A stretch of DNA of 64,000 nucleotides from Phoronis australis (GCA_002633005.1 NMRA01000016.1:1315481-1379480), one strand, 5' to 3'; numbered from the stretch's first letter, positions 2,683 through 47,454 are shown. Translations and numbers: made by a program. Notes: generated by a model not told the origin, from the letters alone.

Positions 2683-3056
2683 ACGTTGTGACAAATAAAA
2701 CAGCCATGGGTAGCAACTAGTGCGCATGTTCACAAGGCCGCTGACAACATTTTCAGAACGCTTACATCAACTAAAAGAGCAACATTATGTATATACTACT
2801 CCAGGAGTACGCTGATTGGGTACAACAAAAATAGGTCAAACTTTCAAGGGGCCTTCCAACCATGTGTTTTTGACCTCGTCACTTGAGGTCGAACTCTGGA
2901 CAGCTGGATATGATCGCAAATTACCGTCAGAAGCATTTATGTTTACTCTGCCTCTAATGTTGCTGTTTTTAGTTGATGTAAGTGTTCTAAAAATGTTGTC
3001 AGCGGCCTTGTGAGCATGCACATTAATTGCCACCCATGGATGTTTTTGTCACTACG
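2683..3056. mobile_element. Imperfect inverted repeat (MITE-like), arms about 100 bp
   Basis: 2721-2787 (TGCGCATGTTCACAAGGCCGCTGACAACATTTT...) pairs with 2955-3020; weaker pairing extends to about 2683/3056. Confidence 0.75.
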
Positions 3057-3178
3057 CTTTGCCATGAATGTTGGCGATTGAAATCGGAAAATCTGGGAAA
3101 AGTATTTTTTATTGGTTTCGATGTCAACAAATGGAAGTAGTGAAAGTGTTGATTTCGCAGATAAAATGTTTGACTTAA

Positions 3179-4850
3179 AGGAGAATGCCACCCGATTTAA
3201 TTAGTCTTTTTTACCGTCTTAATCGGTCTATATTCACATCGCCTCGCATACGTCGACCTTACCTTGCCAAGAGGTGTCGCATTAACCTGTGAGGAAGGTA
3301 AGAAACGACGCTAGCGACGTCAGTGGTTCATATGTATAGTGAATGCCGGTATGTTGCGGTGCATCGTTCCCGCTTGTCCGAACTAAGCAGCCGCGAGGAA
3401 AGCGGGTATATCGTTTTTTTTTTTACTTCCTCGAGAGTCCGAAATGCTTAGAAAGTGGCTCAGGGTAGTGAAGAATGAAATGTACGCTGTAAATAGCAAG
3501 TATGAGGCCATGAAACATCTCCGAGTCTGTGGCCTGCAGACGTCGACAATGGCTGAAGAATGCCGGCTTACCAAATAATTCCATACGTTCCGTTGTCTGA
3601 GCTTGTTCACGGCGCCTATCTAGTATTTCTTCATCACTGTATTCCTGTTCGAATTGATAGCCTGTAAATCTTAACGATCCACCTGCGAAGTCGGGACTGA
3701 TGAGCTCTAGCTCGTCCTAAGTCGGGATTGCGAGTTGCCATTACTGAGCGTTCTGTTTCAAAATGAATTATTCTCACCCTAACCAATACTTTTATAAAAC
3801 TGAAACAAAGTCTGTCTCATTAGATGCAATATGCAATGCCTTTGGGTGTTCGTGAGTGCAAATGATTTGAGAAGCCATCAATGAATAAATCACTGCGTTA
3901 CCGGCTTTAGGTGCAATAAAACTAAATGACGGGACACCGAGGCCGTGTGAGCTCATGCTAATTTAGTGTTTGCTGGCAGAAACTGTTATGAAACAACTCG
4001 ATTTCCATCCCACGGCCAGGAGTTAGGGGAATCTTTATTTACATTTACATTACTCAAATAATGATTGTCAATGTACAACTTATGCCCTGACGGTGCCTGT
4101 GGCCAAAGCGGAACCTGAATTCGGCGGCCCCCGACGAGTAAGTAGATTTGCAGTTTCGTGGCTAATTCACCAACATAATCACGTGCACACTGCTTTGGCT
4201 CACTAGTATAGTATTTTCTTGACTGGAAGTTTAGTTTCCACTGAACTTTGGCTGGTTTATGTTCGTGATGTCTGATCAGTTTCCGAGCCACTGGCCGGGA
4301 TAACGAGTCAATCCGGGCCCGGCCGCGACGGGCCTGATCGGGCTCCGAGCCACTGGCCAGGATAACAAGCGTTTTGTGTTTAGAAATCAAAAGATCACAA
4401 GTCTAAACAACACAGATCTAGGTTCTCCTGTCAGTATCTCACGGAAAAATACTTCGAAATTATCTCCGAACAGACCCCAAACTCCTGCTACGCACCTTAT
4501 TGGCCTGCCGAACTTTGCAGGCTACGGTGTGTCCAAATACCTATAAATCCGTAAGAGCGAAATAAAACAACACGTTTTTATAAGATCTCGGTGTATTTTT
4601 AAGGGTTTTACATCGAAGTTTGATGATTTATTGGTGTTAAGCAGTGACTTCAAGCGATAAGCTGACACCAGTAACCCGTGTTGTGAACTGCTGAACAGAC
4701 TGCGTTTGAAACCGATGACGTTATTGGATAATTTCAACAACTCCGTCTGCCGTCATGTGTCAGGTAACGCAACCGTACGTGTCGTTATGGAGTAGAACTA
4801 CTCGATCTAAATTGATACAAATTAGGTTGTTTTTTGCGTGGCATGCTCCT
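3179..4850. mobile_element. Non-autonomous DNA transposon, Kolobok-like (TTAA TSD, AGG...CCT termini)
   Basis: TTAA|AGGAGAATGCCAC ... GTGGCATGCTCCT|TTAA: TIR matches at 12/13 positions, TTAA on both sides, and a second partial copy at 1795-2199. Confidence 0.7.
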
Positions 4851-5241: not shown

Positions 5242-7473
5242 CTCAGCCCAACTCACGAGACAGGTGAGGGTCACTTCATACTACTGTATGCTTCCTTCAC
5301 AAGAGAGCTATCTCTGTGTACATTTTGTCACAGCCATTTTGTACATACAATCTTGATATAGTTCGCCCAGAATCCGTGTTTGTTTATTGCCGAGGGCTAA
5401 CAGTATTCATATACGAGCCAGAAATGTGAAAACGTGGCTGACCTGGCAAACCCTACAAGTAATCACCGGTTTGTGACAATCGTGAATTTGTTGGGAATGG
5501 CATAATTCCAACTATTCAACTATTTAGAGGCGACGTTTCAAAAAGAATTGGATTTTGAATCCTGTTACTCTCCCCTCCACTTACATCGGAACCGAAAATG
5601 AATTGGCTTCTTTACTCTACCTAATTAGATGATGGGCGAAAAGTTGACTTTTTATCAAATTTCGATTACTTGGGTCACGTGACGGTGGCTTTTAGTTAAA
5701 TTTAGCATAAAGTAAAGTACATCGATACTAAAACCACAGATGTAATTTGGAAAACTACGAAACAATTTTGTAAATTTCATTGCATTTTCGTTATGTAACT
5801 ATTGAGTNGTCGTCAGCTTATACTCTGTGGTGGCATTACTGCGTCATTTTATCTTCACTTGAGAATGAAACAAGTATGTTTCGAAATATCGTGTGTCTTT
5901 TTAATTATGTCACTAGGTCAGTTACTGTATCTATGTTCAGTAGAGAGTAGAGTTTTGTTCAGAAAGTATGAACGCAACGGAATAAAGACCGTGAAAAATG
6001 AAAAGTGTCGTGTATTCAACACATTCTGTATAACAGAAAACTTGCTCCCGAAGTACAGTCAATTAGATGATGGGGGAAAAGTTGACTTTTTATCAAATTT
6101 CGATTACTTGGGTCACGTGACGGTGGCTTTTAGTTAAATTTAGCATAAAGTAAAGTACATCGATACTAAAACCACAGATGTAATTTGGAAAACTACGAAA
6201 CAATTTTGTAAATTTCATTGCATTTTCGTTATGTAACTATTGAGTTTTTTATGACAATCATCAATGGCCAAACACTTGATAGAACAATTCCTAGCACTGT
6301 CGTGGAGAAGTATGCAAACACCCATCTCTGAGGTACGATTGTCCGGAATTGGTCACCATTGGACATTTTCCTAAGGCCCTGCATAACCTAAACGCCAGTT
6401 ATGGACGTGATAGATGGAATAAGTCAGCAGGAAAGGGCGTCAAATTTATTTCTGCTTAGGGACCCTAATGGTTTAGGACCGGCCGCGGGTGACAGTAAAC
6501 GGGGGTGGTCGACCATTGCGCAGAAGTGGCTCATGCTTTCCTTTCAAATTAGTTGTGTTTTACCGTATTTATTGTCAGGTCGTTCTTCAAATCATTCAGG
6601 CGGCTTTAGACCTGCCTTCCTCCGCAGGAATTAAGTTTTTGTTGAGTTCACTAATTGACATATAACCTTTGACCTAAACTTGTTCCTTACTCAGGTGAAA
6701 AGTGTGTGCTAGGTGTGATTAAATTGACAGTTTATTAGTGCACGGCGCTTCAGGCGGCACGTCGTAGCAAGCCAGCTTGAAAACTCTTAAACTGGTTTCA
6801 AACAATAACGATCTGTCAACTCAGTATCCCAAACCACATCTGAAATGACTAAGGAAGACTACTGAGACCAATTTTTAGACGACGAATGGTATTAACCATA
6901 TGTTCTCAAAGCCTTGTAAGTTTTTGTCTTAAACGCACAAAAATGAAATTCCTACACACTCGGCACATTTTGAGCAGTTCACGTTTTCCAACAAGACATC
7001 AATCACGGAAACTAATTCGTGTTTTTGTTGGACGATTTGTTCACTGGTACAGCCTCGTTTTGAAGTTGGTCAAAATTCAAACTCTCAGTCATCGATGGTC
7101 TTGGGAGCCGGAAATGCAGCAATAAAGACACAAGTGAAAGTCGCTTTGACAAATCTTTATTTTGCTTTAGTCGTCCGTACATTTAATGACCGGTGTCAGT
7201 TTCAAATGTCATCCATGTCGTTGACCAACTAATCCCTGAAAAACAAGTTTAAAACGCTAATTATGTATTTGCAATCTTTATATAGTGGAGCACAAACTGA
7301 AAGACACTTGCGGTGAGTACACACTGTGGCAGAGCGAAGAATTTTCGAAATACAGGTCAGAGTTATACATGCAGTTTTCGTTCGAAGAACAGATTTCCGG
7401 CAGCAGCGTCGACATGTTCCGTTAAAAAAAATATCACTGCAAAGTAATTTTCTCAACGTTGCGAAGCCGCCTG

Positions 7474-7891
7474 TGCCCAGTTGCATGAAACAGTCCCAAA
7501 AGGGAGTCAACTAACTTCCCTAAAGCTTTTGAGTATTTGTGTCATTCTTTATACACAGATGTAATTTTTTTCCACCATTTTATCTTTATTATGAGGCCCT
7601 TTTCACTAATAGCATATTCTAGTAATATAACTAAAAACTGCGCCCTAATTAGCCCAATAGAAATGTATAGGGACTTAGTCCTCGAATTACGGGCGTTGCA
7701 TGAAAAGATCCCTATTTATTTTCAATAATATTGAGAATTTAAAGTAGAGTTCACTCTCAATTTGTATCAAAGCCACAACTTGACATGGTAATGAAACTAA
7801 AACAACACAAAAACAAGTGTTTTCGAGAAGTCCACAAATACGCAGTAGATTTAGGGAATTTAGTTGAGTCCCTGTTTTACGCAACTGGGCA
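7474..7891. mobile_element. MITE with about 45-bp imperfect TIRs (PIF/Harbinger-like ends)
   Basis: TGCCCAGTTGCATGAAACAG...TCAACTAACTTCCCTAAA pairs with TTTAGGGAATTTAGTTGA...GCAACTGGGCA. The internal part is repeated at about 8840-8925. Confidence 0.65.
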
Positions 7892-8100
7892 TTGATGATT
7901 GACTGGTTCACGCTCTAAATTCGTCACCCTCTGTCAAATTTCACACACAAAACTGCAAGAACCTCTCTCTAAATAGAGACAGAGAGAACAGATTTGAGTT
8001 ACCAGATTCATGGTCAAGCGCCTTGCAGCTTTTGTCTATCATGAACACCGGTACAGAGCAATGAAATTTTGGCGCGAACCAGTCAGTCATCAATCCCCAA
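7886..8100. mobile_element. Small MITE-like inverted repeat abutting the previous element
   Basis: ATTGATGATTGACTGGTTCACGC pairs with GCGCGAACCAGTCAGTCATCAAT. Confidence 0.55.
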
Positions 8101-9662
8101 TAGAAAGAGCGAGGCGGCTCTAAAACGTCGGGAAAGCAAGTTTGCAGAAAGTTTCAGAAGTTTCACCTCGATAAGTTTATGTTAATCTCCCCCGTCTGAA
8201 ATGGCCCCGCGTTTGTGGGGTCAAGTTATAATCATTTATAACACAAACGTTTAAAACGAAGGCAGATATTTCTCAAATCAGGACAATAACTACGAGTTAA
8301 ATTATTCCCAATTCCTGTACCCTAGGGTTCTAATCAACAGGTTTAGGCTCGACTCAGACTTGCACTCAGAACTTAGTCAATCAACTAAGTTCCCTCAATC
8401 GTCTCCGTAGGTGTGTCGTTCATAACTCACTTGTGTAATCCTTTTCGATCATCTTTATCTTTACCATGCTGCCTTTTGATTAATGACAAATTCTAGTAAT
8501 ACAAATAAACAACCTTTGTTTAATGAAAAGAAAATGAGCCCATCTGTTAGGCTTGCAATGTGAAATAACTCGAAACTTTTCATTCTTTGCATGCAGTTTT
8601 TGACAAGAGTGAAGAAAGAGTGACGAGTCCATTGACGTGTGTTCTGATAGGCAAACCTCAGTGAGAACTGTTCTGTTCCACCTAATTGCTGCGTTTGATC
8701 TTCTTTAGTGGTAATACAACAGTTGAATTTGCTGAACAGGAGAAAAACGCTATTCCGAGCATTCACATGCAAGCAAGAATACCGGGAGTTCCCGAGTATT
8801 TACGCGGGTATTTACGAGGTAATCGTGTGAATGTATCTATAGTCCCAAAATTATGGTCGTTGTTTTAACAGTTCCCTAGTTTTGTTCAATAACAGTGAGA
8901 ATTTAAGGTAGACTTCACACTCGATTCGACTTTTATACACCAACTGAACTAACTGAAAACGGCATGACAAAAGATAATCGGTGTATTTACACGTCCAAAA
9001 CTCTGCAGTAAATTTAGCCGAGTCCCTACTTGGATCACTTTCAGGAAGGCAGCCAGGCATTGGTTCCGAATTATCGTTCATCACCATCTTGCACACGCTG
9101 CCTTGCTGTTCAATAAGCTGCACTAGATTCTGCACTATACGATAAGTCATGTGATATCAGGATTGAAGTTAGAAGCTGTCTTGCGGCTAGAAGAAATACA
9201 CGGCAATGTCACCCGTAATCTCGCGAAGTCGTGATTTTCCAGCGAGGTTCTAGCGTTGTTAATTCTACCCAGTATTGGAAAAGTAGAACAAAAAACTTTC
9301 AGTCTTAAATCTAAGTTTTGTAAGGATCTTGGCTAATAGTCACATAATATGCGTTGGTGTACGATTTTCTCCAGCCCCACCCATATATGACGCTGTGGTA
9401 CTCAGATCGAACGAGGCCATTTTACTCGTGGGGTGTGGGGAGCTGACCGTAACACAAAACCGCACCACTTGCAACCAAGAAAGAGGTGATTTGTGCTAAG
9501 TTGCCGTACAGTGTTGTTACGTACATGTACGTTTGTGTCGCTTTTGGAACAAACATTTCCAAAATTGCTGGGGTTGGGTGCTGTTTTAAATAGTGAGGCA
9601 CAGTTTTCAAAAAGGTCGAGAACCAGTTATTATATTTTCCTTGATTTTGTATTGCTTTATAC

Positions 9663-9784
9663 TTACCATGGTAAACACTCGCACTGTCCATTGGTACACA
9701 CTGGTTGTTTTTGCTGTGGAATGCATAGATCCCAGCAATCAAAAGTCTGTTGCGTAGTACATCGGCGTGTTCTTTGCAGTGCAA
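9663..9784 (-). CDS. Exon encoding the propeptide end and the mature CS-alpha/beta (defensin / scorpion K+ toxin-like) peptide
   Basis: Acceptor ctctatttcag at 9785-9795. The phase-1 frame reads (V)ALQRTRR-CTTQQTFDCWDLCIPQQKQPVCTNGQCECLPW*, with spacing C-x7-C-x3-C-x8-C-x4-C-x-C directly after a furin motif. TG|GTAAGT at 9667/9666 may instead be a donor, so the last residue is uncertain. Confidence 0.82.
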
Positions 9785-12700
9785 CTGAAATAGAGGGCAT
9801 AATTCACTTGTAAAATACGCTTGTGCTTCATTAGTGTTTTTTTGTAGCTGATTTCGTTTTCCTGGTGACGTTTTTTTATTTTTATCTTTGATCCTGTCCC
9901 AGGGGCGCTTAAGTCTCCTGAACCCTCCCCCAAATAGATCCGTCTCTGCAACAGTAGGACATTCTCTACAGGGGGACAATCACAATTAACTACCACACTG
10001 TGACACACAGAACCTGGGACACATACAACCCCGTCCAATGCACAGAAACCTGACACACAGAGCCCCGATATGCATAAAACGACGGTACACATAAAAATTT
10101 TACAGGGGAGGAGAAAAACGCCCTCCCGACCTCCCCGAGCGTGACGCTACGCGACTCGGATTCGCGCGAAGTCTAAAACCCCTTACTGAAAACGTGGTCT
10201 GCCACTGTTTCGTACCTGATTCCATGCGTCCGTTGTTAGAGTTCGACCAGCCGAGAAAGTCAACATAAGATCGCCGTTTGCTACCCAGCCAAAATGTAGC
10301 AAACTAAAGGTGCATTTTCAAGATCCAGCTCGCATTCGAAAATTCCAGGGGGGCATTGATTGATCTGACAACGACCAGGACAAAAATTGTCACCTAGACC
10401 TAAAATGGCGATTGTAGCTAAAACTTGCACACTCGTCCGCTTAGCACCTGGAACACTAAAGACCGGGACACATAGATTCCGAAGTCCATAAAACGGGAAC
10501 TTTAGAACCGGAGACGCATAGAACACGGGACGCAATGCTATGCTCCCAATTTATATTATCTAAGACTACATGTAATATTTACATGTAAACTCGATCTTTA
10601 CAATTACTATAAACTAGATCGTTAATTTAGAGGTGGATTTTTGTATAATTTTCCACTCATCTCCAAAACAATTACCACAGAAAAATGAGTAAATAGATGT
10701 GATCATTGATCATTCATAAATAAAAGCTTTGTAATTTTACATGTCTGATGGCTAAACATGAGTCTGCTGATGCATCCACATATCCACTCCAGACATTTAA
10801 ACTTTGCATTACTTCACTACCTGCACTAGTGCCTCAGTGCTAATAACATTTTGCAATGCACTTTCAGATGTAGCAGTTTCGAGTATTTTAATTCTAAGTG
10901 ATTTTGTGACTATGCATTGCCGCAAGAGAAGGGGAAATAATTACTTCTACACTACGTACATTTACTTAGACGGTCACGTGCAAGCTTTGCACTGTTCCAT
11001 GACTGTGGGTCAAATTATTCTGCAATGTCTGCACATTTCCACATCACAGCTTGTTAACAGATTCAAACGTTTCCTTTGGCAAATTAATTTACTACCTGTA
11101 ACACTACTATAAAGAATATGTTAAAGCCATGTGCAGAAATACATTGTCGCAGTATTGTATTTCTGAACTCTTGAGGGTCAAATGATTCTTTTATTTGTGC
11201 ACATTTTGCACTGTCTCGAGCCTGGGTTAAAATGATTTTGCCAACGCATGCACCTTTTCACATCAGACTTGGTTAACATATCCCGAACTTTGCACTCTGG
11301 ACTGTTTGTCATTTTTTACCAAACTTCGAATTGCAGACCTCACAATTTTGTATTTTTAAACTCGGAGGGAATAGATTTGCCACTGTAGGACCGCTTAAGT
11401 TCTGTGACAGTATTTACACTGTACTTATATGGTTACAATGACACTATAAATAAACTATATACTTTGGCTTGAGCGGTAAAAAGTTGGTCTTGTAGTTACA
11501 AAGAATGCTGGGACTAGGACATCAGGCCTTAACAAAGTAATAAATTCCCCCTTTTCATACATTAAATTGCATGTCTGCTGGAAAACACTTGACTTCTCGC
11601 GGGCATGATTTCGGATGGTGTTATGGCGGACATGTGTCATCTCAGAGACAAAAACTGTTTCAAACAAATGGAATTAGATAATAAGATAACTAATATCACT
11701 GACAAGATAAAATATACGAACACAGAAACACATTCTGCTTCGAACCAACTTCACTCTAGGTTAACTGTTAGTTATCAATCTTGCTGAAAAGTGTCGCACT
11801 TTTAATAATGGCTGCCTCACCAAATCTGCGTTGTAAATGTATGCCTTGGAAAACTCTGAACTTAAGAATAAGAAGGGACCAATCAGGGCAAGTAATACGT
11901 TTTTGAATCACCGTGACAAGAGGAATCGGCAAGAATGTGAACAAGTTTGACTACTGCTGTTACTTGCCTCGATCTGAACATCAACTATTTCGCTCAACTC
12001 CTCAACCTTTGCTGTCCAAAATCAGAGTGAGAGAACACAACACCTCTGGAAATAATGTTGTCTGTTGTCTGATGCCAACTGTTTTGAGAATAATACTTTC
12101 CAGACGTCGCAATAAAGCCCTTTAATACCGCACTGACTCCCTGAATGACTCTTGTGACTATGGACAGCATGAAGTCAGCACGTTGAAATCACATTTTTAA
12201 CATAATTCAAGTTTGGAAAGGTGAATCACTAGGTCACCTGAGACACCTCTTTCTCCAACTGAAACTTACCTAATCTTAACAAGTAACAGATGGCCCATCA
12301 GCCTGCTCCTGATAGCCTTGCATACACTGAACACAAGGGAATAGTCAGATGAACTTTTGATGCACAGTGGCTCGTACAAAAACTCTGAAAACTGCCAACA
12401 CCCCTTCGTTTGCTCATTTGCTCACGTGGTGGTGCAACATGACAAATACAGACTGAATATCTGGTATCTAGGTATGGAAGGAAACGGTCAGTTCTGTGAT
12501 TGGATACACTGTATGATTTCAATTGAGATTAGGTAAACACCAGTTGACGAATTATTATCACAATCAGCCAGTTGATTTTACAGCACTGGAAGAACCAATG
12601 TTTCTACTATCCAAATAAAAACACCGTGCACATATGGGAGAAAACATGACAGCAAAATGATTTTGAGAATGAAATAATTTACAGTACTACTCACTCTTAA

Positions 12701-13494
12701 TAATTACAATTATTGTTTTTACAATTAACAGTGCCATTTCATTGATCTTCGTTGCTTATTTGAAAATTTGTTAAACAAGAAAAACGATATTCACATTTTT
12801 TTGTAATTTAGCACATTCAAAATATAGATTCTATTATTCTTTCATTTTAGCTGATCTGCGAAAACCTCACCACCAAAGTAAGACTTGGAAGCCAGGTGGC
12901 TGCTTTAATTAAAATTCTGAGGAAATAGCCAACTAGTTAGTATAATAGGGTAAGCTATCCGTTTCCTTGGCTTCTCTCCTCAGATAAACTACAACTGTTT
13001 AATTTGTATCCCAGAAACTTTGATTTGCCTGTGGTGTTGATGAAGTTCAATGAATAGGAAATAAAACAAAATTTCATGAAAAGAACATTTAGAAAACTTT
13101 CTTTAGCTCTTATCTTCATCTGATTAAAGAACCGTTTATTAGCAGCTGACTAATACGTGGCATTGATAGAACGTTATAAACAGTTCGTTCCTATTCAACT
13201 GGTTTAGATATCAGATCAGGCTATTTCACAAATTAAAGACCATGGTAAAACACCGCACACTGGTAATGCTGGAAACTAAATGTAATTTCATATATTATGC
13301 ACCAACGGAAACGTTTTACTTTTTAGAAAACGATAGCTTCAGTAATGTAATGGCTATTATATTCAGCGCTTTTCCCCTCTGGACGCAAGAGACTCGCGAA
13401 AACCAGGCATTACAAGGACTGCACGTAATCACTTGAACTTTTGCTTGCCAAGTTCTAGCGGGACTCGGCCAAAACTGACAGTTTCTGCTCTCAC

Positions 13495-13576
13495 CTCCGT
13501 CTTCGCCCTCTACCGGTAGCGCCTGGATGCAGCCCAAAGCCAGCATCAGTACAATGAATACCGCGACACACTTCAT
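13495..13576 (-). CDS. First coding exon (signal peptide plus acidic propeptide) of the secreted CS-alpha/beta peptide gene
   Basis: MKCVAVFIVLMLALGCIQA-LPVEGEDG has a basic N-terminus, hydrophobic core and IQA cleavage site. An acceptor ttacag lies 13 nt upstream of the ATG, and a phase-1 donor GAG|GTGAGA is at 13494. Confidence 0.82.
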
Positions 13577-15129
13577 TACTTCCAGTTTGCTGTAATATAA
13601 TGACAGGTCAAGTTAAGGAGAAACATGTATATAAGAGGAGAAAGAATTGAATGAGATTAAAACAAAATGTAAATAATTGACCTCAAATGTTTTTCTCCTC
13701 GATAGAACAATTATGCTTCCGTATTATCGAGTAAAAATTGAAACACGTGGAAAAGCGGTCGTCTGTACACCCTGTGTTTTCTAGGTACGGTTAAATAATC
13801 AAGTATTTGAACGCGTCTCTTTGAGAATTGCCTAACTCCATCCTGTGAACTGCGGATTTGAAAAAATGTCTTGTAACTTAGCAACAGTCAGCTAGCAGAA
13901 AATGCGTACCTTTTGGGTCTAGTTTTTATATTGATTTGCCATTAGACGGCAAAACAAGTCAAAGCCATATTTTTCTGGTAACCTGCAAGCTACGGATTTG
14001 CATAAGGAAATCCACTTATTCAGCACAATGTTTTACTACTTTGAGCTTATGTTATAGTAAACATTGATGTAGGGTAAAACTCTGAACAGTCATTATCAAA
14101 AATGTACAATGTGGTTCATGACAGTTTAAATTAACCTTTCAGGAAGTTGGTATTTCAGTGTCTTTTGACGTAGGTTGAACAGTTTTATATTATTTGCCCC
14201 GCCTAGTGCCAGCCTGTTGAAACTCGGGATTCGCATAACTCAAGATTGGATTCTTTCCGGAAAGCCCCTTTTCAATCACAATCCTAATGAAATGAACTTT
14301 CCCCATATTGAACTGTATTTTTTAATCGTATTATGGGTCATTTTCATTTGTGGAAATCGACGAAACCGACCGCAGTTTTCGAGACAGTGTGCTGTTTTTG
14401 TCATTCAAAGGCGATACTGTTTATCCCTGCACAACACTCCCCAATTAAGCTTACATTCCTGTGTTCTTGTTGAAACAATCAATACAGGGGCGCAAGTAAA
14501 GAACTGTTGTTCCGGGATGTTACAGTAATCGGTGTCGGCGGAGGTGCAAATGGAATCAAAAGATTTGGGGGAACGGGGCTGTCGGCGGAGACGAAACTGC
14601 AGTCGACGGAGGGAGGTTACGCTCACCCACCCAACACACACACAAGCAAACTTTCATACGCCTATGTATGACTGCCTAATTCTGACTAATATACTTGTGC
14701 CAAGGAGTGTACATAGAATAGGAAAGTTCACTACTCCATCTTGCCTTTCGCCACAATAGCGGATTTGCAGCGCAGACGAACTACGCATTGCGCATGTGCG
14801 AGTTACTTCCTTCGCTAAGGCTCATGGGATAGCTTGTGGTCAGGCATGTCTTGAGCAGACTGGATAGTGTGTGCATTTGGAGTAATTTGCAAACTAAAAA
14901 CCATGTTTCATTGTTTTGCTTTATAATACCAAGCAAGTTCTCTCTCTCGTTTGTAAACACAGCGCAGCTATGATCAGTGACCGAGTGACCGAGGGCACGA
15001 CTGTCGTCATGTTCAGTATTGGGGCTATCGGCGTTGATTTCGAAATCTCCTCCTGCTCCGGTTTCAGACAACTCGAGAGTTCTTAACTTTTGTAGCTTTC
15101 GCCGTGGATATGTTAGAGACGTTAATTTT

Positions 15130-15215
15130 AAGAGGAAACTTCGTCGGAATGTTGTTCTCATAAGTCTTTTTTCACCAGGAAAATGTTCGCTGCACACACG
15201 ATGGCCCCTAGGCAA
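15130..15215 (-). pseudogene. THAP zinc-finger C-terminal relic (transposon-derived)
   Basis: GHRVCSEHFPG, then a frameshift to KTYENNIPTKFP: the CxxHF and terminal [AV]PT-like boxes of THAP domains. Confidence 0.7.
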
Positions 15216-15897
15216 TTACATCGCACTGGATGCCGCAGGCATTCAGGGGCGATAGTACATCCTCACAAAAAGTTGCTCATTTCAAAATACAACAAATAAA
15301 ATCAAATGAACCATACATATAGCAACACGGAGTTATAATTAACACATACCACGACTCTGGATACAATTTAGTCAGCAAAACTTAAACAAATCGATGAAAA
15401 TCTGTCGCGGTTTGCTCGAGTTTCTTTCAGTTACCGGGTGCCATTTTGAGGAAGTTACGTGAAATAACGCATGTTGACGAATAAAAAGTCCAAGGGACAC
15501 ACATCTTACAAGTTTCACCCGATACCTTCTCATGCTATTTTACAAGTGTCGCGCGCTAGCGTCACGCGCTTCGCTCAGTCTCGCACTAACCTTTGCCTAA
15601 CTCACGGGATTCAGTCTTGACANGTGATATTCATCCTCGACACAATTCCACGAGCATAATGTACACACTCTGTCTTGTTATATCACATTTACGGGACGAC
15701 CAGTTTCTAATGCCAGTCTGTGGTTTGCACATCGAAAACATGTAAAACTTTGCACGGACACTCTTAAATAGTTTCATGTTCAAATACAACCTTAAACTTT
15801 GTGTAATAGTTTAACTTAGAATTGGAATCAATATCGGACTATAACATTCCATACCGTCATAGACTTCATAATTTTAGTTATTGCTCCTGAGGGTTCA

Positions 15898-16051
15898 CAG
15901 GGGCGGATCCAGGATTTTGAATTGGGGGGGCAGGGCAGCTACTGGCCAGGATTTTGCCCGTTAGACATTTGCACTCCCGAACTGCCAAATGGAATCTGGG
16001 AGAATATTAGGGGGGCATGGCACCCTTGGCGCCCCTCTCAATTCGCCACTG
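15898..16051 (+). mobile_element. About 150-bp MITE, CAG(G/T)GGCG termini, 5-bp TSD (hAT5-like)
   Basis: GTTCA|CAGGGGCGGATCC ... ATTCGCCACTG|GTTCA. Homologous copies at 34055, 40512 and 47455. Confidence 0.8.
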
Positions 16052-19005
16052 GTTCAGGGGGAGTTGCCCCTATGGAGGTGCTAGCAATTAAAGGGGTACA
16101 ATTAGGAGCTCTGCTCAAACCAGGTGGGCGCCAATGGGCACCTGTTGACAACTCCCCATGGGAGGAGTGCTAAACAAGTAAAATTCATTGGGGTATGCCA
16201 CATGATTGTGGGCCCCTCTCATCCGTCACAAACTTTGGTTGTTCCCCTGACCATTGACAACATGTGCTGAGGTGGTGATAAGATTTGACCGCCTCGTTTT
16301 GTGCATGACCCCAAGGACTTTTGCCTGTAAGGACTGACATGCTCCAGTTCCATCCTGGGTGTTTCCAACGTTTCCTTACAAAGTGCTCCAAGCCCACTGC
16401 TTGTTTCATGTCCACCCAACAATTTTGAATGTGTTCCCAATTGAATACGCCAGGCTGATGTGTAATACAAGTAAGAACAAGAAAACAAGACAGTTTTAAT
16501 TGTAATTAATTAGTGATTAAAATCACTACCACAACACTGTATTCCATTCTGTTGTTCACATATAATTGATAATAAATTAGCTGCAGAAGGTAGAGCGTAG
16601 CCTGTGCAGTAGCCTACACTGCAGACGACAGCAGTCGGCATCGGTAACTGCGATCGACTTGCCATCCACCCGTGAACAGCTAACACACAAAATGGAAGAC
16701 AGTGTATCATATTTTTAAATAAAAAATAATCCTTATTTTCTGGATCCCTAGGAAACGAAAAAATGTCAAATCTGGGAATTCTGTGGAAGAATTAGTGCAA
16801 TTTATCGCGCTGCAAAATGCTCCCTTTCCACTGTTTTTGCGCAGCCTACTTGAATGTTGCTTATTCACCGCTTGGTGACACTAGTAGTTAAAGCGAACTC
16901 GTAAGTGAGCTCTCCTTTATGTACTACACTCCTTGTTGCACTGTTTACACTCGTTACAGCAAAGTTATGGACCACTAACGATATAGAACGTTATCATATT
17001 CTGCCAACTGTAATGCAGTAAATAACGGTCACAGATCTACTAAAGTGATGGCATAATGCTGTAATTGTGGTTGTATAATCACCAGCTACTAGTATGACGC
17101 AACACTAATTTGACGATGTCGAGATACTTCCGGCACACGCAAGCCCAAAATTTAGCAGTGGAACACTTGAGAGTTTTAAATTTTGACGTTAGCATTTAAA
17201 AATGAAATTTTAATTAATTTATATGAAGTAGTTAGTTTCCTCATCGCATACACAAAACGAACATTTAGGACAAATAACATGGCGAACTCGACAACCGTGA
17301 TCTGTGAAGTCCTTAACTACCATGTGGCTCACGGGACTTTACGAGACAGATCCAATTTTGTAAATTTCAAGATGTTGTTAGTACTTTCATCATCATATTG
17401 TAGTAGGGGTCAGTTTATGAAAACATCGGAGGCTTTGGCTGGCCGAGGAGAAGCGGGAGGAGGGGACAGTAGGCCCGGGATTCGAGCAAAGTGAGAAAAA
17501 CAAGAAATAAATACGAATGCAAAAAATCCATTGGAGAACGACGAAAAGGAAACTGCACGTAAAGAAGGTGTAATAAGTTAAGATTAAATAAAAAACATAT
17601 ATTCCCGCAGTGAAGTGGATACATATAGATGACACGCTCAATTTCTTGGCTAAGGGCAATGTAGCATTAAGACCAAGCCTGGCAAAGAGTTGAGTATATC
17701 ACTGCGAGTTGATAAAAGCAAAAACGTGATATACAACAACGCCATTGATAAATCTTGAGGAGTTCTCGTTGTCCTGAACTGTTTATTAGTCTGGAAATGC
17801 TGGCGCTTCTGACATCTGCTTAGGGTCACCGCAGACGGAGAACCATGAGCTCACGTGTATGCCTGAAGTGAGCAATTATAGCTGAGCTGGCGCGAACGTC
17901 AAGATGTGAAGACACGAGAATAACTGAACGAACTTTCAGCTGTATCGATTAAGAGTTCGGTCCTTGAAGTGACTTTTCCACTGAACTTCAACGTCACAGT
18001 GTCACTGTTCAATCTTTTAACACAAAGTACACAGATGTTTATTATGGTGTTCTGAGAGTACAATGCCAAATGTTCACATTCAAAAATGTTGGTGCTCTGA
18101 ACACGCTTGAAGGGCGTGTTTTAAAACTGCAGTTGTTTTTATTCTAAGACCATTTACGATGAACAACTGAGACGCATTTTTACAAACATTTATTTTCATA
18201 CTTTTTCTGAGTGTTTTGAAATGTACCTTATGAGAGGAAATTTCAGTCTGCAAACTCAACACGAAGATCTGTTGTGTAGAACTGCTGATCGTGACTCATA
18301 GACTTTGTAGAATCATAAAAATTTGTTGTCTTAACTGCAATTCTGAACGCAGTGTGTTCTGGCAAGACGCATCGCTCGAAGAACACCGAGCGTTCAACGA
18401 CCGACATTCAAATTCTTCAACACGCATGCACTTGTGAGTTTCTGCTATCCTCTTGTTTATTGCTTTTGTGTGAAAGACATTGTTTTTGTTTGTTTTATAG
18501 TAAGGATTCAGGTACACGTATTAGAAGCATAAATATAGAGTTATTCTTGGCTGTATATTTAAAGGACAAGATGTGGGTTTCATCCACAAAGCACCTTGCC
18601 TTCAACATTTGAGTATATTTTGTTTTTCATGGCATGCTAGTGTACATTGATAAGGATTTCCATTAATTAATGGTTTTGTGTGTCTAAGAACTATTGCACA
18701 TAGTATAGTAAAGATTCAAGTACATGTATAAGAAACATAATTATCCTGATATCCTCGTCTGGTTTTTAAGTCGCATTGTTGGCTAATACTTAGCCTGTGC
18801 AGCTCCTATTGTCTGCGGTATTGTTTTACGATATTTGTTTTATATGGCGAGTTGGTGCAACGAGCTAACACTTACATGTAACATGTACACCAATATTAAA
18901 TGGAAATCACAGGTTTTCACATTTTCAAAAACGAATTTTTCATATTGATAAAAATAAGCGCATTGTTACTTGACCAGTGCGCGACAACCTAACGAACGAC
19001 TTTAA

Positions 19006-19427
19006 AGGCGAAAGCAACCTTTTTCATGTCACTTTTAGCAAAAATAAGGTTAGTTGATTATCCCAGACACATTTTTCACTTAATTACAGCTTTTCGTAAT
19101 TTGATTAATTTCTCGTCCTCTACTCCGGAAGTGACGTTTTGGGAGGCAAGAGTTTCGCGCATGTTGACTGACTCGTAAGCAAATGCAAACGACGACCGAA
19201 CTTATCACAACCGAGGTAGAACAATGACTTACTCGACTGTTCGCACAGTCAGACTATATGAAAAGAAATTGGCGCGAAATTCTTGCCTCCCAAAACGTCA
19301 CTTTCGGAGTAGACGATGAGTAATTAATTAAATTACGAAAAGCAATAAATAAGTGAAAAATATGTCTGGGATAATCAACGAACCTCGTTTTTGCTAAAAA
19401 TGACATGAAAAGGGGTTACCTTCGCCT
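19006..19427. mobile_element. Kolobok-like MITE with about 155-bp TIRs and TTAA TSD
   Basis: TTAA|AGGCGAA...TTCGCCT|TTAA; 19006-19160 pairs with 19272-19427. Confidence 0.88.
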
Positions 19428-22400
19428 TTAAAGCTCATTGCATTACAACGCTTTATCAAATCACTTTTCAAGGATTGTTTGAAACGTTGCCACATGAGAG
19501 AATGCGATATCTGTAGTGTCTAAATTTTTAATCAGTGTCAACCATGCCTCCCGCAATGAACAAAAGTAAAAACCTTGCTATTCCCATAGATTCAATTTAT
19601 TGTGAAAAACTAGCTAGACAGTCTAGATTATGTTCACCATCATTAGAGCACGTAATATTCAAAAACCGCTCTTAGAACACCGAGACTGTGTTCTGTACTG
19701 TAAGTAGAACACGCGTCACATGTATTCAACAGTGTGTTCCAACTTGAACACCAGGAGTTCCAAAACAAATACACAGTGTTTGTACTTGAAAAACACTATA
19801 ACTGCGTTCACACAGTGCAACATTTGTGTGTTATATTTTGTGTTCAAAAGCAGATCACATAAGTTTAGAGTGTATCGTTCACTTGGGGCAGACAGCAGAT
19901 CAGCTCGTAGCTCTCCGACTTCGTTGTTTCTTAGAAACGATCACCACGACATGGGCGTTTAACAGACTTCAGACAATAGTACTACAGGAACGATCTCATG
20001 ATATCGGCCCTGTTTTTTCAAGCTTTTAAAAAATTGCTTCCAAGACATTCCTACGGAAAAGATAAGAAATTTTGAAAAATAGTATAGTTTGAATAAAAAG
20101 TAGTGTAAATTGTTTCCATGGGAACTATTTTGTAAATTTTCTGAAAGTCTTCAAGAGCGCGTTAGGCCATGCTCATTCGATTCATATCATAGTTTTCCAT
20201 GCCACATACATAAGCTAAGTTTGAGAAATGTGCCCTTCGTCTTTTCTAACGAGTTTTAAGGAACTGGAAGTGTTCATCACTATCCTAAGACTATGCAACC
20301 GTATGCAGTGAACAGTATATTTCTTACCTGCACAATCACCACTGTTGTGTATGCCGTGGAGCAAGACGATGCTTGCTTTTAAAGCCCTCCTCCACTTTTT
20401 GATCGGCTGTTACATAGAACATCACTCATAGTCTATGAATCACATTGTTTAACCAATCACGCATCATATTCCTCGTATCTTGAACGATTGAACAATTTCT
20501 GAACGAGAACGCTAAAACAAACAACATGTTTTACCAGGCAAAGTGTTGTTTGTCGGGTAAAGTGGTGGCTTGGAAACGAGGGTATGTCAAGAATGCTGCG
20601 TTCTGATTGGTCAGTTAAGCCGTCACTCAAAATCTTGGCGATAGGTCAAATGTTAAACGCACGTGCAATACAGTACAGAGATACAGTTTAAGCTGCACTG
20701 GATGAATGAAGATGGTCATGTTGGGAGATTGCCTTATTGGGTTGGTCGTGTGGGAAACTTGGAGCACAGAAATAAATATGGGTTCCTAGCTGCTTCAAAC
20801 TGTATCAAAACTAGGCAAGACATCGTGTTTGTGGGAACTGCTGATAAAAATTGGGTATCTATTGAAAAATATAGATTTTATCTGATCTTGTGCATATTGG
20901 AATGCATACAAAGCTATGACTCATTTACAGTCAAGATTGGTCGAGTTGTCTAATCTTCAGAATATACTCGACGATTTCAGACGCATCTTGAATACAATCA
21001 AACGGGAGATGCGATGGAAAGGATCGCAAATATGACAGTGATTATCCACACAGTATCGAAGTTTGACGTGATAACCCAATGTATTTCACTTGATTTTTCA
21101 AAACATTGTTAAATCACCAAATTTGTTGCACAAGCTGATCTAATTACATCTATATGAAGTAATGTACACGGTAAAGTAAAACTCAATGGACGAACTTTTT
21201 TGAACGGAAACGTGTTAGGCGGCCTTTCAGCTATCTGTGCGCATTCCTTCCTGAATCGTGTACAATTGATTATTGGAAAATAAGGATTTAAAAAATCATT
21301 TGATGCTATGAAGTAGCAAGACAGCAACGACCTGTCATTCAGAGGGCACTTTGTGTGTTGTGGCTATTCACATTCTATCGCCATTTATTTAAGGACTCAG
21401 CTTGTCAACGTTACTTATTCGCCGTTTCCCGCAAGGCGGTTGGAAGATTTTTATTTTATATTATTCTGCTTTGGAAAATCTCTCGGAAATTTTTAACTTA
21501 TTGAAGATTCCACCAATTTTAAAAGAACTTTTTTCAGTGAATATTTTAAGGTTGAATTTCAAGTAATCTATATTAGGTGTACTTACCGGCGGAGCTGAAT
21601 ATCGAAATCCAGATTTGGAAAGTCACGGGTCAGCCGCTCTGAAGTCTTAATTCAGTGTGATGACTTAACATTATATAACAGAAATCGGAATATTTTTATT
21701 CCTAATGCTGGTCTGGCATCTATGTCCAGCCCATTTTAAAAAGTTCATAATTTGCTAATGTAGGCACGAAAATGATGTTTTCGAACTAGGAGCAAACAGG
21801 TGTTTTTCACATTTTTCACGGAATAGTTTGGTGAGAAGTTATACTGTTGACATGACAGCCAGGCCCAACATACTGACCATCAGTGTAGTCAAGACGATCA
21901 CATTGATGTTACTTGGCCACATTTCCGATTGTATCTCCAGCGCAGCCGGGAAACATTTAAATCCGTGAGTTTTAACATTAGACAAAGACGCGAGTTGGCT
22001 TCAAATAGCTTCAGTAGGCACTTCCGAGCACAGACCCACGCTGAGTTAATCGAGCATTTTTAACGGCCTTGAGGTTAATATAGGGCCTTGTCGACATGGC
22101 TGTGTAGGTGGCAAATATTTTAAATCTATCATTTCAACGTGGTAAATCATCTATTTTTTGAAAGTGGAACGGCTATGAAATTTGATGTTTGACTTTATAC
22201 CGATGTGTTGTTGAACGGGTCACGTGACGATGTCCTCTGACAAAATATTAAAGGTGCCATATGATGGTCCTTCCCGATTTATCACAGTAGTCTGTCTCAA
22301 TAATATTTGCTTGATAAGAGTTATTATGCAAACACTGACGTAACTGAGACTCTGATCGAAAATCTGTAGTGTCCAACCATATTATGTTAGGAGGGTTATT

Positions 22401-22550
22401 CAACAAGGCATTTTGAATGTTAAAATCAAGATAAAGAAGTAACACTTAGTTTCTCAGCGTTCTGTAATTGTAAATGGAGTGTTTACCAGCAAATGTCTTT
22501 CGGTAACTTACGTAATAAGAACATAAAAATCAGTCCTATTTCTTAATTTA

Positions 22551-22786
22551 GCAGTTGCTGGAAGCGTCTCAGAACTTCATCACAAGTCAAGGCTCCATAT
22601 CACTGGCTGAAGCATAGAACAGACATTTCGTCGCACGTTTTGCTTGAATAGACTTGTGAACGTAAGGTCGAGAATAATAAAGTGATTTACTCGAATCAGT
22701 CTTCAGTCTACCGTAGCACCGAAAGCTATTAACACCGGTCGGAAACAACCTGCCCCCACACATCCAAGGGTTGCATGCGCGCACCC
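22551..22786 (+). mobile_element. Fragment of the LTR-like family at 31714-32788 (R/U5-like part)
   Basis: Diverged direct copy of about 32276-32487, including the AATAAA. Confidence 0.8.
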
Positions 22787-23253: not shown

Positions 23254-25068
23254 AAGGCCCGTAGCGCCATTGCGCTTTGGTGGTTCGATTTTCTTCAAAG
23301 GTGGACCTTTGATATTTCGGAAACGTCGACACAGGAGTTTTCGGTTTTGCCCATGAGGCAGCTTAATTACGGGGCAGGGAAATCTGTATGCACAGCAGCG
23401 ATGGCTCTCAGCTCTGTGTTCCTGAGGTAAGGCGGAATTCGTGATCCAGAAATGAGGACGCCGTGATGGTTGCTTGCAAAGAACGGGACTCAAATTCGAA
23501 TGTGGTCCACAAAAGAACGTTTTCACGTTACCTCCTGCCAAACTTTCAACTCAGGCGTGTTTAAATGAGTGGCTACACCTCATTACATACTCGGAAGGAA
23601 ATATTTAGTCGGAGATTTACTTGACGTAGTTTCTCTAAAGTTTCTTACATCGCTGGAAATGGGAACAGCACACTATTCCCGAAAGCTCACTAATTCGATG
23701 GTTCATTACTCCAAAAATATTTAAAATTTCGGACTCATGAGTAATTGTTAAACTTTTACATGTAAAAATAAACGACGTTTCGGTTATTAGATGCAGCTAT
23801 ACCGAAAACAACACCCAAGTAATAAATCACTGTTTGGATTTCATGCGCACGCCCGCATGTCTTACGAATACTGAAACATGAGTACCTACTTGCATTTCTA
23901 AAAGATAATGAAGTAGGAATATCGATGAATTATCAACCACGATACATTCATCTAATCGATGTCAAGATCACATCATTGCACAGCGCGACTGAAAAGATCG
24001 CGGCCACTGCGCTTCAACCTCATCCACCGGAACTACTCGTCGGACGGCTGGGTCGAAACTAAATGTAGTTACTAGGCTACTCTGTCCCTGACAGTCTTCA
24101 CGAAAGTCCCACTCAGTCTCCTTAAATTTAAAACCGCCGTTGGTTGCCGCAACCCGGACCCGTGCCCCAGATGTTTTCCCTAATTGAGAATGAGTCTACT
24201 TAGATTCAAGAACCACGATTGCCAGTTATTAGAACTGTTATTGTAACCAATGTAATCAATGTTTTAGGAACCTTCGGAGTAGTGAACCTTCGGAAAAGGG
24301 ACATGTAGCCATAGAAATCTTTTCCATCAACATTGTTACTTGAAGCTGCGCACCATTGACACTAAGTGAAGACTAACTTCGTTGATCAAAGTTTTAATTA
24401 GGTCTAAACTTGCTTTTCCTAATAATGTGAACATTCGGGGATTTTTCAGTGCAATGAGAAAACGTGTCTTGTTTCCGAAAAACGACGGAGTAGTGAATGA
24501 ACTTACCGTCGGCTTGTACTGAATTTTAAAGAACGCAATTCATGTCAAGCAACCAATCCACAATCAAAGTGGACACCGGATGGACAAAATCTTTGACAAT
24601 CACTTTCAATACGAAATTAGAAAGTGCTTGCACTTGATCATACTTATATGCTAGAATGTACACCAAATAGCTGATAACTCCCCATTTTCTGATATTTTGT
24701 CTCTTGGTGAATTTTAAGGCATTAACAGCGCACTACTTTTGGGAGCTCCCTCAATGCTTGGCTATGTACAGACATTCGCTTCTAGACGCCCTTGTTACCC
24801 TATGGTGTAGCGACCACGCGCGATCAATGCCGAAGAATAGCATAAGGCTTTCTCTAATCTCCTCATGATCCAGTCTGTACGCACACACCACTCGGGCCGT
24901 ACCCGGCCCGACGATTATGTAAAGCACTTTGAATAAGAAGCAAATTCAAAATTAACATTAATTTGATAGCGATTGTGGTTAGAAGTACTAGGGATCGGAT
25001 AGGCTAGGACTGGACCTTTTACGCGGGGGTCAATCGAACACCCCGACCGCCCCGCGGCTACGGGCCTT
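23254..25068. mobile_element. 1.8-kb non-autonomous DNA transposon with 5-bp TSD (hAT5-like)
   Basis: AATGA|AAGGCCCGTAGC ... GCTACGGGCCTT|AATGA: perfect 12-bp TIR and 5-bp TSD. A long inverted copy lies at about 58329-60290. Confidence 0.8.
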
Positions 25069-31713: not shown

Positions 31714-32788
31714 TGTCAGAATATAGTCTGACAGTATTTTATTTGTATTGTATTGTATTGTTTTGTTGTTCTGTTTGATTGGCATGACCCCTGAGTTAAG
31801 TACAGTGATGATATAATTTGTTTACTACAAAATAGTGGTGAACTTTCTAGAAGACTGAGGTCAGAACAGTGATGATCTAATTTGTTTACTGCAGTATAGT
31901 GTGGAACTTTCTAGAAGACTCTAGCATGACAGTGATTAATGCAGTCTGGAATATTCTAGAGACTAGTATATGTTTGTAGAATGATTAGGTAGATTCAGGA
32001 AAGTTCTAGAATGTGCTTGAATTGATGTAAAATTCCAGAACAATGCATTAGGCTATAAATACACAAGCACGGATTTGTGTTAGACAGATCAAGTCAGCAG
32101 TTCCTGAGAAGATCAAGTCGGGAGATTAAGTCAGTTCAAGAGAAGATCAAGTCAGTTCAAGTAAGTCAATCAGGAGAACTACAGTTGAGTTGCAGTGAAG
32201 AGAATCGGCAGTTACAGCTATAGTCAATAGAGAGCCAGCTATAGAGATAGCAGGTTATTGAATCGACGAGTGTAACAGTTGCTGAACGTGTCTCAGAAGT
32301 TCATCACAAGTAAAGGCTTCGCAGCACTGGCTGGAGTATAAACAGACATTACATCGGACGTTTTGTTTGAGTAGGCTTGTGAACGTACGGTCAGGATTAA
32401 TAAAGGATTAACTCGAACCAGTCTTCAGTCAATCGTTGCACCGAAAGCTATTAGCACCGTTTGGTAACCACCTGCGCCCACCCACACACGGGGAAAAACG
32501 TGACTAACACAAACCCGTGCTTGTGTATTTGTAGCCTAGTGAATTGTTCTGGAACTTTTTATCAATTCAAGCACATTCTAGAACTTTCCTGAATCTACCC
32601 AACCATTCTACAAACATATACTAGCCTCTAGAATATTCCAGACTGCATTAAACAGTCATGCTAGAGTCTTCTAGAAAGTTCCACACTATACTGCAGTAAA
32701 CAAATTACATCGTCATTGTACTCAACTCAGGGGTCATGCCAATCAAACAGAGTAACAAAACAAAACAATACAACTAAAAATACTGACA
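31714..32788 (+). mobile_element. LTR-like element with inverted U3-like ends, TG...CA termini and 5-bp TSD
   Basis: GGGAG|TGTCAG ... CTGACA|GGGAG. TATAAATA at 32054 and AATAAA at 32399. 32504-32788 is the reverse complement of about 31729-32083. Confidence 0.85.
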
Positions 32789-45198: not shown

Positions 45199-45284
45199 TC
45201 ACTTCCGATTTGTGGAATATTGCTTCCTCTCTTGGTCAATCCAGCTTCTCAAGGCGGTGACACGAGCGTACACGCCAGGATTAC
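45199..45284 (-). CDS. Trypsin-like serine protease (S1A), terminal coding exon
   Basis: Acceptor tttctag, phase 1; (G)NPGVYARVTALRSWIDQERKQYSTNRK* contains the PGVY.RV...WI motif. Confidence 0.92.
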
Positions 45285-47186
45285 CTAGAAAGTATTACCG
45301 TACCTGGATTTGAGATCGTCAAATGATTATAATTCAATGAGCCCACTGACAGTAAAATTGAACCTGGTTTTAATTTGGCTGAAATGACTTTTTCCATATC
45401 TCCCTCTGTTTACAAACTAGAACAACACTAGACACTGATATTCACCACCTCAAAGTTACACTGGTTGATTGTAACTTAAGTAAGGATTGCGACAATAATG
45501 AACGTAAAGCAACATTCAACCAGCGCTCATGCAATAGACACTTGATGGAACCTGGCATTGTTGCACACAGAAGTCACAGGAGTTTGTGTCCAAGTAATAA
45601 CTGGAACTGAACTGGACAACAACTCAACGTGTCTAGTAAGGGGCGAAGATTGACGTCCCGCGACAGAACTCGGTCATGAGATGGTCTTTGCGTTATACGG
45701 ACGAGTCTAGGTTGGAAAATGGTCAAACTGGTACTAGTCTTCCTGTGTGAGCGTGCGCATTACACATCCTACACTATGCAACAAACATTACGGATTATAC
45801 ACCAAAATGTGTGTAACTGAGCAAGAGCGCAGCTTGTCTGCAGGTTTGCGTCCACACCGCCACGGCTTGCGCTGGGACAAATAAACCTAGAGCATGTTAC
45901 CCTACATCGATAAGGAGGGGGTAGTTGTCACACGTGTGTCGAAATGTTGTGACGGCCGTTTTTATAGCTCAATTCCAATGAAAAGTGTTTCGTTTGATCA
46001 TCAGTTAGTTAGATTTCTTCAACTTACAGGCGCAGGCCAACTCATAGTGTGGATGGCACTTAGACAGATAAAGAAAGATGGCGCCACTAAGCAAGTTCGC
46101 CACGGTATTCTAGACTGAAATTACTCTACTTAGTAGAGCAGCTCACTATTGACTCTTACATAGAAGTGTGAGGTAGTTCACTAGCCAGTTACCCGTTTTC
46201 TGATAACCAAACCGTCACAAAATCCTTACAAAAAGAGAGTCAACGTGCACAGTAAAAGTCTTGAATTAATGAGCTTAAAAAGCTTGCAGTTGTCAATGCA
46301 AATGGGACAAGGCTGATGTATAAACTGATGGCAAAGAGAAAGCGGGCAGACTTGCAAAATAAGTGATTGTAACATCATTATCATAGGCTAAGGGATAAGC
46401 ACCAGGATGGCGCCATCACGTGTTTACATTTGATATTGTGTAGCTCAACTGGAAATGCCTCGCGACTTGATAACTTCCCGAAGAACCAGAGGACCAATAG
46501 GAGGGCTTGCATTACTTTCGCTTACGCGCTTATGATGCATTAAAAAGACACCAGAGCTCACGCATCGCTTTTTGAATTAACTATCAAGGAACTTGACAGA
46601 TATCGACACACGCAAGGCTAACCAAATCTGCCGCTAGGGGGCACAACGGTAGTTGCAATTGTCAGAAAGTCAACAACTTCATGTGTGTGCTCCTCATTAG
46701 AAACACGAGTCAAACATTACGATCCTTAGTGGTTCGGCAGACACTGACTTTACGAAAGCTGAAATTGTCACTAGGGGCGCATGAGAGGGGGGGGTTTCAT
46801 CCGAAAATGAGTAAATTCGTCCTTTTCCTGATAGAAACACATCTGCCAATGTTCGTCGAAATTCACCATCAGATGGAGCTTGATAGATACAGAGGCAGCC
46901 GAAAAAGTAAAATCGCCTGTTGGGGTACAGCAACAATCAGATCCGTCCGAAAATTTGGCGCGACTCACACTTTTTATAATAAAATTCGTGTCGGGAAAAC
47001 ATCAGGGTGCTTTAAGGGGATTTTTGGAGCTACCTGGTGAGAGGAGAACGCCGGATGTTCTGCCAGACCTATGACGTCAATACGCGCCCGCTTATATATA
47101 TGTGGGTGTCATAGAAGTTATCTGTATCTATCTATATTAAACTTTTGTTATTTTCACGCCATCGATTACATAGATATCCTTGGTCA

Positions 47187-47390
<204 letters not shown>

Positions 47391-47454
47391 CTATTTTTGT
47401 GATCAGTAATTAATATGCAGTACAACCAATCGAGTTACTAAGCTACTTAATTTA

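Follow-up and report, generated by a model that had tools for sequence, protein, structure and literature searches.

Known Six-Cysteine Defensins and the Locus Analyzed

Insect defensins are usually made as precursors in which a signal peptide is followed by an acidic propeptide and a basic site (PMC5506212; PMC4996505). The cysteines of insect prepro-defensins are spaced as C-X5-16-C-X3-C-X9-11-C-X4-7-C-X1-C (PMC4996505). A phase-2 intron directly past the CxC pair is present in bee defensin 1 and navidefensin1-1, and navidefensin3 is a prepro-defensin with a short n-loop (PMC2853521). An insect defensin that is anionic and acts against bacteria has been reported as well (PMC3234185), and the question of a single or multiple origin of invertebrate defensins is described as unresolved (PMC5116183, section 8). 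Here, we analyze a 64,000-nucleotide (nt) stretch of DNA (NMRA01000016.1:1315481-1379480), further called the window, which is eukaryotic, has 40% GC and contains repeats and introns. On its minus strand we found an unannotated spliced gene for a small secreted six-cysteine peptide, most likely composed of four exons. The peptide is a new member of the CS-alpha/beta (cysteine-stabilized alpha/beta) defensin superfamily and comes from an undescribed, fast-diverging gene family.

The gene shares with six-cysteine defensins of the arthropod and mollusk type the signal peptide, the acidic propeptide and the basic site, the CxxxC and CxC elements, and the membership of a multigene family. The closest named defensins are hymenopteran defensin 1 and navidefensin3, and the common features include an intron of phase 1 within the leader and one of phase 2 just past CxC; the correspondence of intron 3 (Table 1) with that of bee defensin 1 was compared by description, not by alignment. 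A beetle defensin ends with the seven residues G-V-C-V-C-R-R (PMC5506212, Table 1), to which the tail of a paralog, not of the copy in the window, is identical. SpliDef is likewise an anionic six-cysteine defensin with a signal peptide and a propeptide (silkworm and Plutella examples are cited in PMC5506212), but its mature peptide has 50 amino acids (aa) against 33 here, and the likeness was drawn from their descriptions. The mytilins of mussels form a variable family of CS-alpha/beta defense peptides encoded by four-exon genes (PMC7168163), yet they contain eight cysteines and combine a cationic core with an anionic C-terminal extension, in contrast to the six cysteines and the N-terminal propeptide of the present peptide.

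Structure of the Gene

The first-pass annotation of the window had proposed a two-exon gene with a precursor of 67 aa. The gene itself is real, but the model needs correction to four exons (Table 1). The start codon at 13576, the donor GT at 13494, the acceptor AG at 9786-9785 and the 3710-bp phase-1 intron between them were all confirmed in the sequence; the donor reads ACGGAG/GTGAGA (13495/13494), and ATTTCAG/ (9785/9784) forms the acceptor (slashes within sequences mark splice points). The stop codon placed after Trp did not hold. This TAA (9665-9663) sits within the donor ATG/GTAAGT, a word found only nine times in the window with both strands counted; no AATAAA or ATTAAA occurs between the TAA and position 8524, and exon 3 is covered by RNA reads. 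Since the proposed stop falls inside a GTAAGT donor, the precursor is probably 68 aa long (19 aa signal peptide, 16 aa propeptide and 33 aa mature peptide), with a net charge of -3 for the mature part. Exon 3 follows the acceptor AAACTTGTTTTTCAG/ at 7236 (AG at 7237-7236) and carries its AATAAA at 7161, while the acceptor TTACAG/ of exon 1 lies 13 nt upstream of the ATG. In this copy, the six splice sites are all intact, as is the poly(A) signal. In an ad hoc exon scan across the window, 9784-9667 was among the 11 acceptor-donor pairs that passed; a real trypsin exon passes too.

RNA evidence came from three raw-read runs of one study (X1-X3), with about 18-19% of each run used; a contig set (X4) has the same species label. 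Read figures separated by slashes are given in the order X1/X2/X3. Exon 1 is covered at a depth of 631/918/968 with first mates on the plus strand, against 1.1/0/0 on the minus strand, which under the usual library convention means that the RNA is on the minus strand. The two exons missing from the two-exon structure, a 5' non-coding exon and the last exon, were both found from the ends of paralog reads. For the former (exon 0), a 14-mer from a 5' loose end at 13592 matches 14/14 at 20341-20328 (chance about 0.001). This is the best window-wide match of the 5' loose end of paralog C; it directly abuts GTAAGA, and TTTAAAA at 20383-20377 precedes it. In the window-wide alignment, exon 0 was singled out by the 5' end of paralog C only, and by neither that of A nor that of D. 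Exon 0 lies outside both read mappings, so that its support comes from the loose end of paralog C, not from reads of this copy. A strict kappaB-like word, GGGGCTTTCC, is located in intron 1 (14259-14268, minus strand), but as one of six such words in the window it is not significant and was not used as evidence.

Table 1. Features of the six-cysteine peptide gene (window positions; UTR, untranslated region).
Feature	Position	Strand	Basis
TATA-like box TTTAAAA, putative promoter element	20377..20383	-	Sequence; about 25 nt upstream of the presumed start of exon 0
Exon 0, 5' non-coding, start approximate	20328..20360	-	Match of a paralog 5' loose end; donor CAG/GTAAGA at 20327
Intron 1, 6738 bp, within the 5' UTR	13590..20327	-	GT..AG ends
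Exon 1: UTR of 13 nt, then ATG at 13576, a 19-aa stretch predicted as signal peptide (13576-13520), and the start of the acidic propeptide	13495..13589	-	Hydropathy up to 3.5; paralog reads
Intron 2, 3710 bp, phase 1	9785..13494	-	Same junction position in reads of two paralogs (loose ends 13498, 13501)
Exon 2: remainder of the propeptide including RTRR (to 9762), nearly the whole six-cysteine mature peptide (from 9761)	9667..9784	-	Sequence, fold, RNA depth
Intron 3, 2431 bp, phase 2, interrupting codon three past the last Cys	7236..9666	-	Donor GTAAGT; presumed junction
Exon 3: final base of the split codon, a codon for Asp, TAG (7231-7229), short 3' UTR, AATAAA (7161-7156)	7140..7235	-	3' end approximate

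Sister Genes and Expression

The reads over exon 1 stem from sister genes that are about 84-90% alike, and the main sister differs by seven substitutions over 13505-13573 (90% identity). Reads of paralog A (776/1385/1802) leave exon 1 at 13498 and continue as V-A-L-Q-R-T-R-R-I, with 20 of 23 bases identical to the start of exon 2. Those of paralog B (333 in X1 and 205 in X2) leave at 13501 into V-D-I-Q-E-R-N-S-G, with 11 of 27 bases alike. Both paralogs exit exon 1 at the predicted phase-1 junction, and the splice point between the signal exon and exon 2, as first proposed, is thus the one used by two sister genes. Paralog B shares the signal exon, and no RxxR was seen at the matching place in its first nine residues, so that it may be processed differently or give a different mature peptide. 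Three distinct 5' ends (13576, 13582, and 13592) point to at least three sister transcripts. Neither a paralog nor an alternative exon 2 was found inside the 64-kb window.

At position 7218 in exon 3, 95/191/207 reads were found, all on the same strand as those of exon 1 and in a steady ratio to paralog A (7.5/6.7/7.9). In the frame of exon 3, the loose end of 207 reads of X3 at 7233 spells G-V-C-V-C-R-R-stop, and its CxC is in register with that of this copy. This C-terminal end probably belongs to paralog A, to which it was assigned by read counts and not by a spanning read, and the abundant paralog thus probably ends in a basic tail like that of insect defensins. The family conserves the signal/pro exon and diversifies the mature exon: exon 1 is about 90% identical, and the paralog reads cease to fit past RTRR.

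The copy in the window is expressed weakly, with few reads in two of the three samples. In the bin 9592-9733 of exon 2, the depth is 2.64/4.2/0 on the gene strand and 0 on the opposite strand. At 7218 the letter of the window is kept in 2/95, 6/191, and 0/207 reads, a sample pattern like that of the exon 2 bin. The few near-identical reads could stem from a closer paralog instead.

The Mature Peptide and Its Predicted Fold

Secretion is predicted from the signal peptide, based on the hydropathy profile and the sequence. The consensus of furin is R-X-K/R-R, which RTRR fits, and a convertase cut is predicted after this site. It is followed by the cysteine array C-x7-C-x3-C-x8-C-x4-C-x1-C (spacings 7, 3, 8, 4, and 1). 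A relaxed CS-alpha/beta pattern gave one match in the six frames of the window, compared to two in 40 simulated windows matched in composition. Both RTRR and the cysteine pattern were correctly recognized in the first-pass annotation. The same is true for the richness in Gln and the Val before Cys4. The exon 2 part contains two Asp, one Glu, one Lys, and six Gln, and its surroundings of Cys4 read P-V-C and V-C-T-N, with G-Q-C located at Cys5. The charge of about -2 given earlier applies to this part, but the whole mature peptide, once exon 3 is added, has a charge of -3.

AlphaFold2, run without an alignment, predicted a helix (residues 3-16) and two strands (18-23 and 26-31) with a predicted local distance difference test (pLDDT) score of 92.5 (91.0-92.5 over five models), in agreement with the expected helix and beta-hairpin. 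Another open frame of exon 2 served as a control and gave a single helix with a pLDDT of 71.7. The predicted helix holds C2 and C3, and the last strand holds C5 and C6, the places expected for the disulfides of a CS-alpha/beta fold, and the predicted pairs are, by analogy, C1-C4, C2-C5, and C3-C6. In Foldseek, the top rows were tamapin variants, P01, BmBKTx1, and cobatoxin, with template modeling (TM) scores of about 0.55-0.73, while none of the 62 rows had an E-value of 0.001 or below (E≥0.9 for the neighbors). The neighbors in VIA-align were a designed miniprotein, drosomycin, LURE1.2, alpha-KTx5.4, SP11, ASABF, and nasonin, with low and tied Z values of 2.7-3.8; none of the 53 rows at Z≥2 reached Z≥5. 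Weak Foldseek E-values and VIA-align Z values are expected for 32 residues. In both comparisons, CS-alpha/beta peptides lead the structural neighbors.

Homologue and Literature Searches

Neither 5.8 billion clustered proteins nor 1.84 billion representatives yielded a relative, yet one paralog is abundant in RNA: the gene and its family escape ordinary annotation. The search with the signal exon returned no candidates (proteins of 47-151 aa). Exon 2 had two matches among the 1.84 billion representatives, both of which were rejected as tandem-repeat artifacts without the cysteine array. There were no NCBIfam families for exons 1 and 2, no matches in Rfam, and none in either of two pattern searches of metagenome DNA. 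In Pfam, Albumin_I, Toxin_6 (E-value 0.004), and Toxin_2 (E-value 0.028) all remained under their curated cut-offs, the bit scores being 15.2 against 25.1 for Toxin_2 and 18 against 25 for Toxin_6. The best sequence matches in the PDB had E-values of 0.4-2.5, short of significance, and the Atlas clusters Toxin_2 and Toxin_5 (0.86-0.87) are a lead only. A published description of the family was not found in a literature search that covered few subscription journals and no supplements; the alignment file of PMC5116183, which perhaps holds similar sequences, was outside this coverage. The three peptide motifs of this copy were not found in the literature motif search either, while the tail of the paralog was found in two insect papers. 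Together, the fold prediction, the fold neighbors and the lack of homologues in these searches support the earlier proposal that the gene codes for a secreted CS-alpha/beta prepro-peptide and belongs to an undescribed family.

Functional Interpretation

With moderate confidence, we regard this copy as a diverged, anionic host-defense member of a multigene family with the six-cysteine CS-alpha/beta defensin fold. Its strongly expressed sisters look like ordinary defensins, which makes a diverged immune peptide more plausible for this copy than a channel-blocking toxin. A role in host defense is suggested by the beetle-defensin-like tail of the sister, the insect precursor plan, the phase-2 intron reported after CxC, and the known anionic but active defensin. 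Within the superfamily, the basic tail of the paralog, the acidic propeptide at the N-terminus and the same phase-2 intron also favor the defensin side. Transcription would run along the minus strand from a TATA-like promoter near 20360, a strand that agrees with the reads, and three GT-AG introns would be spliced out. The splice signals of all three are present, the position of intron 2 is found in paralog reads, and introns 1 and 3 are deduced from paralog read ends. The 19-aa signal peptide would be removed, followed by the 16-aa acidic propeptide, as the motifs suggest, through a furin-type convertase. The 33-aa peptide would then adopt the predicted helix and beta-hairpin with the three disulfides, and this copy would probably bind a specific microbial target or work alongside its cationic sisters. 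With a charge of -3 and no Lys before Cys4, it probably acts neither by electrostatic attack on membranes nor by plugging K+ channels.

Several observations weigh against this reading. By features, Pfam and Foldseek, the nearest matches are short scorpion toxins and not defensins. The C3-C4 spacing of 8 lies outside the 9-11 of insect defensins (PMC4996505), whereas the other gaps fit; the GxC of the gamma-core, before Cys4, is replaced by PVC; and the mature charge is negative, while insect-type defensins are net positive, with published anionic exceptions. Sequence similarity to six-cysteine defensins was not detectable, and the host is perhaps not an insect. Count ratios, not single reads, link the two termini of paralog A. 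As for this copy itself, only 14/23/3 reads in 9450-13700 are at least 99% alike. The junction of 13495 to 9784, which the first-pass annotation had named as a check, occurs at the same position in sister reads, but it is not among the four joints listed at a threshold of three reads. In the second mapping, none of the 15 joints listed, out of 79, falls at the introns of this gene. Finally, toxins and antimicrobial peptides cannot be told apart by the spacing of their six cysteines (PMC5116183), a limit to every interpretation. Since the peptide departs from insect defensins in the C3-C4 gap, the charge and the GxC, and from alpha-KTx in its signature, we assigned it at the level of the superfamily only.

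Should the diverged defensin reading hold, the family offers a natural pair on the same precursor, one cationic and defensin-like and the other anionic and short-toxin-like, as a system for studying functional change in CS-alpha/beta peptides. A further-reaching proposal, which we hold to be unlikely, is that these are six-cysteine, insect-style prepro-defensins in a marine non-arthropod lineage where none have been described, and that this copy has independently shrunk to a short scorpion-toxin scaffold with reversed charge and gained a new target, for example a receptor or channel of host or prey. The phase-2 intron after CxC in common with bee defensin 1 would then make the gene layout ancient. 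If the host lineage has no known six-cysteine defensins, the common intron positions would bear on the question of a single origin of invertebrate defensins; otherwise, this is one more defensin-like peptide, of which anionic ones are already known.

It is similarly doubtful that this is a neofunctionalized copy that acts on proteins of the host itself or of prey without pore plugging, be it as a ligand for a receptor or by inhibiting a protease. The peptide is anionic, rich in Gln and expressed at a low level relative to its sisters, and LURE1.2 and SP11 are within its top five fold neighbors (Z 3.3 and 3.0). Plant LURE and SP11 and some inhibitors use the CS-alpha/beta fold in this way, and protease inhibitors are named among CS-alpha/beta peptides (PMC2853521). 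However, both Z values are low, defensins tie with them, no partner is known, and the trypsin-like gene 32 kb off is no evidence of a link.

Less probable again is a modulator of ion channels, from venom or a defensive secretion, that has converged on short scorpion toxins. Such a likeness to scorpion K+ toxins had been noted in the first-pass annotation and stands for the fold and the spacing, but not for the sequence. The peptide is comparable to the alpha-KTx peptides (tamapin/scyllatoxin, P01, BmP02, BmBKTx1, cobatoxin) in size, spacing, C4-x-N, and predicted fold, and scorpion toxins are what the Pfam, Atlas and Foldseek matches named above have in common. C-x-N alone can still give a weak Kv block (PMC5004176). 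Every one of these matches, however, is under significance. The Lys of K-C4-X-N is absent (PMC5004176), and the natural, Lys-less scorpion alpha-KTx Bot33 is inactive on Kv1.1-1.6 and Shaker (PMC9657394), which together make pore block unlikely. The net charge of -3, the defensin-like nature of the abundant family member, and the lack of any sign of a venomous host argue in the same direction. The least probable explanation is a redundant duplicate drifting to a pseudogene, in line with its lost cationic character and with a letter of this copy that is possible in at most 6/1358 (X1) and 1/1929 (X2) reads at 13549 and in 0/1969 (X3) at 13517, but it retains its six cysteines, RTRR, all splice sites and the poly(A) signal, its fold is predicted with confidence, and low counts in three samples of one study are compatible with tissue-specific or inducible expression.

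Other Elements in the Window

A multi-exon gene for a trypsin-like serine protease is located at 45238-52759 (minus strand), with exons near 52466-52759, 49919-50069, 48078-48230, 47220-47309, and 45238-45279; its N-terminal exons were not found. Two database searches with a trypsin exon yielded 7/17 and 4/4 matches at 53-78% identity, among them krill, fishes and sea cucumber, and no close relative. An open frame of 232 codons (54197-54892, minus strand) resembles L1-transposon-related and baculovirus FP-like proteins (Atlas 0.95) and adjoins a gap of 319 N (53872-54190).

The most over-represented 8-mer in the window is TACATGTA, which occurs 30 times against 2.7 expected (11-fold). We take it to be typical of marine non-insect invertebrates, as a lead for which no supporting paper was found, by title or abstract, among those listed. 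TAGGCCTA and GTCACGTG are also raised in the window, a possible lineage signature. The repeat at 3000-4800 has deep RNA reads on both strands and a weak THAP-domain fragment (3387-3575, E-value 0.0064), and is probably a decayed DNA transposon. An array of units of about 138-145 bp spans 56526-57333 and 62180-62920, the latter being an inverted copy 5 kb away. A dispersed element is present in two inverted copies about 35 kb apart (23687-24595 and 58875-60218), and a direct repeat pair lies at 22549-22770 and 32273-32492. Fold-back elements resembling miniature inverted-repeat transposable elements were found at 31748-32773, 19018-19414, and 2697-3046, with arms of 80-154 nt and about 90% complementarity.

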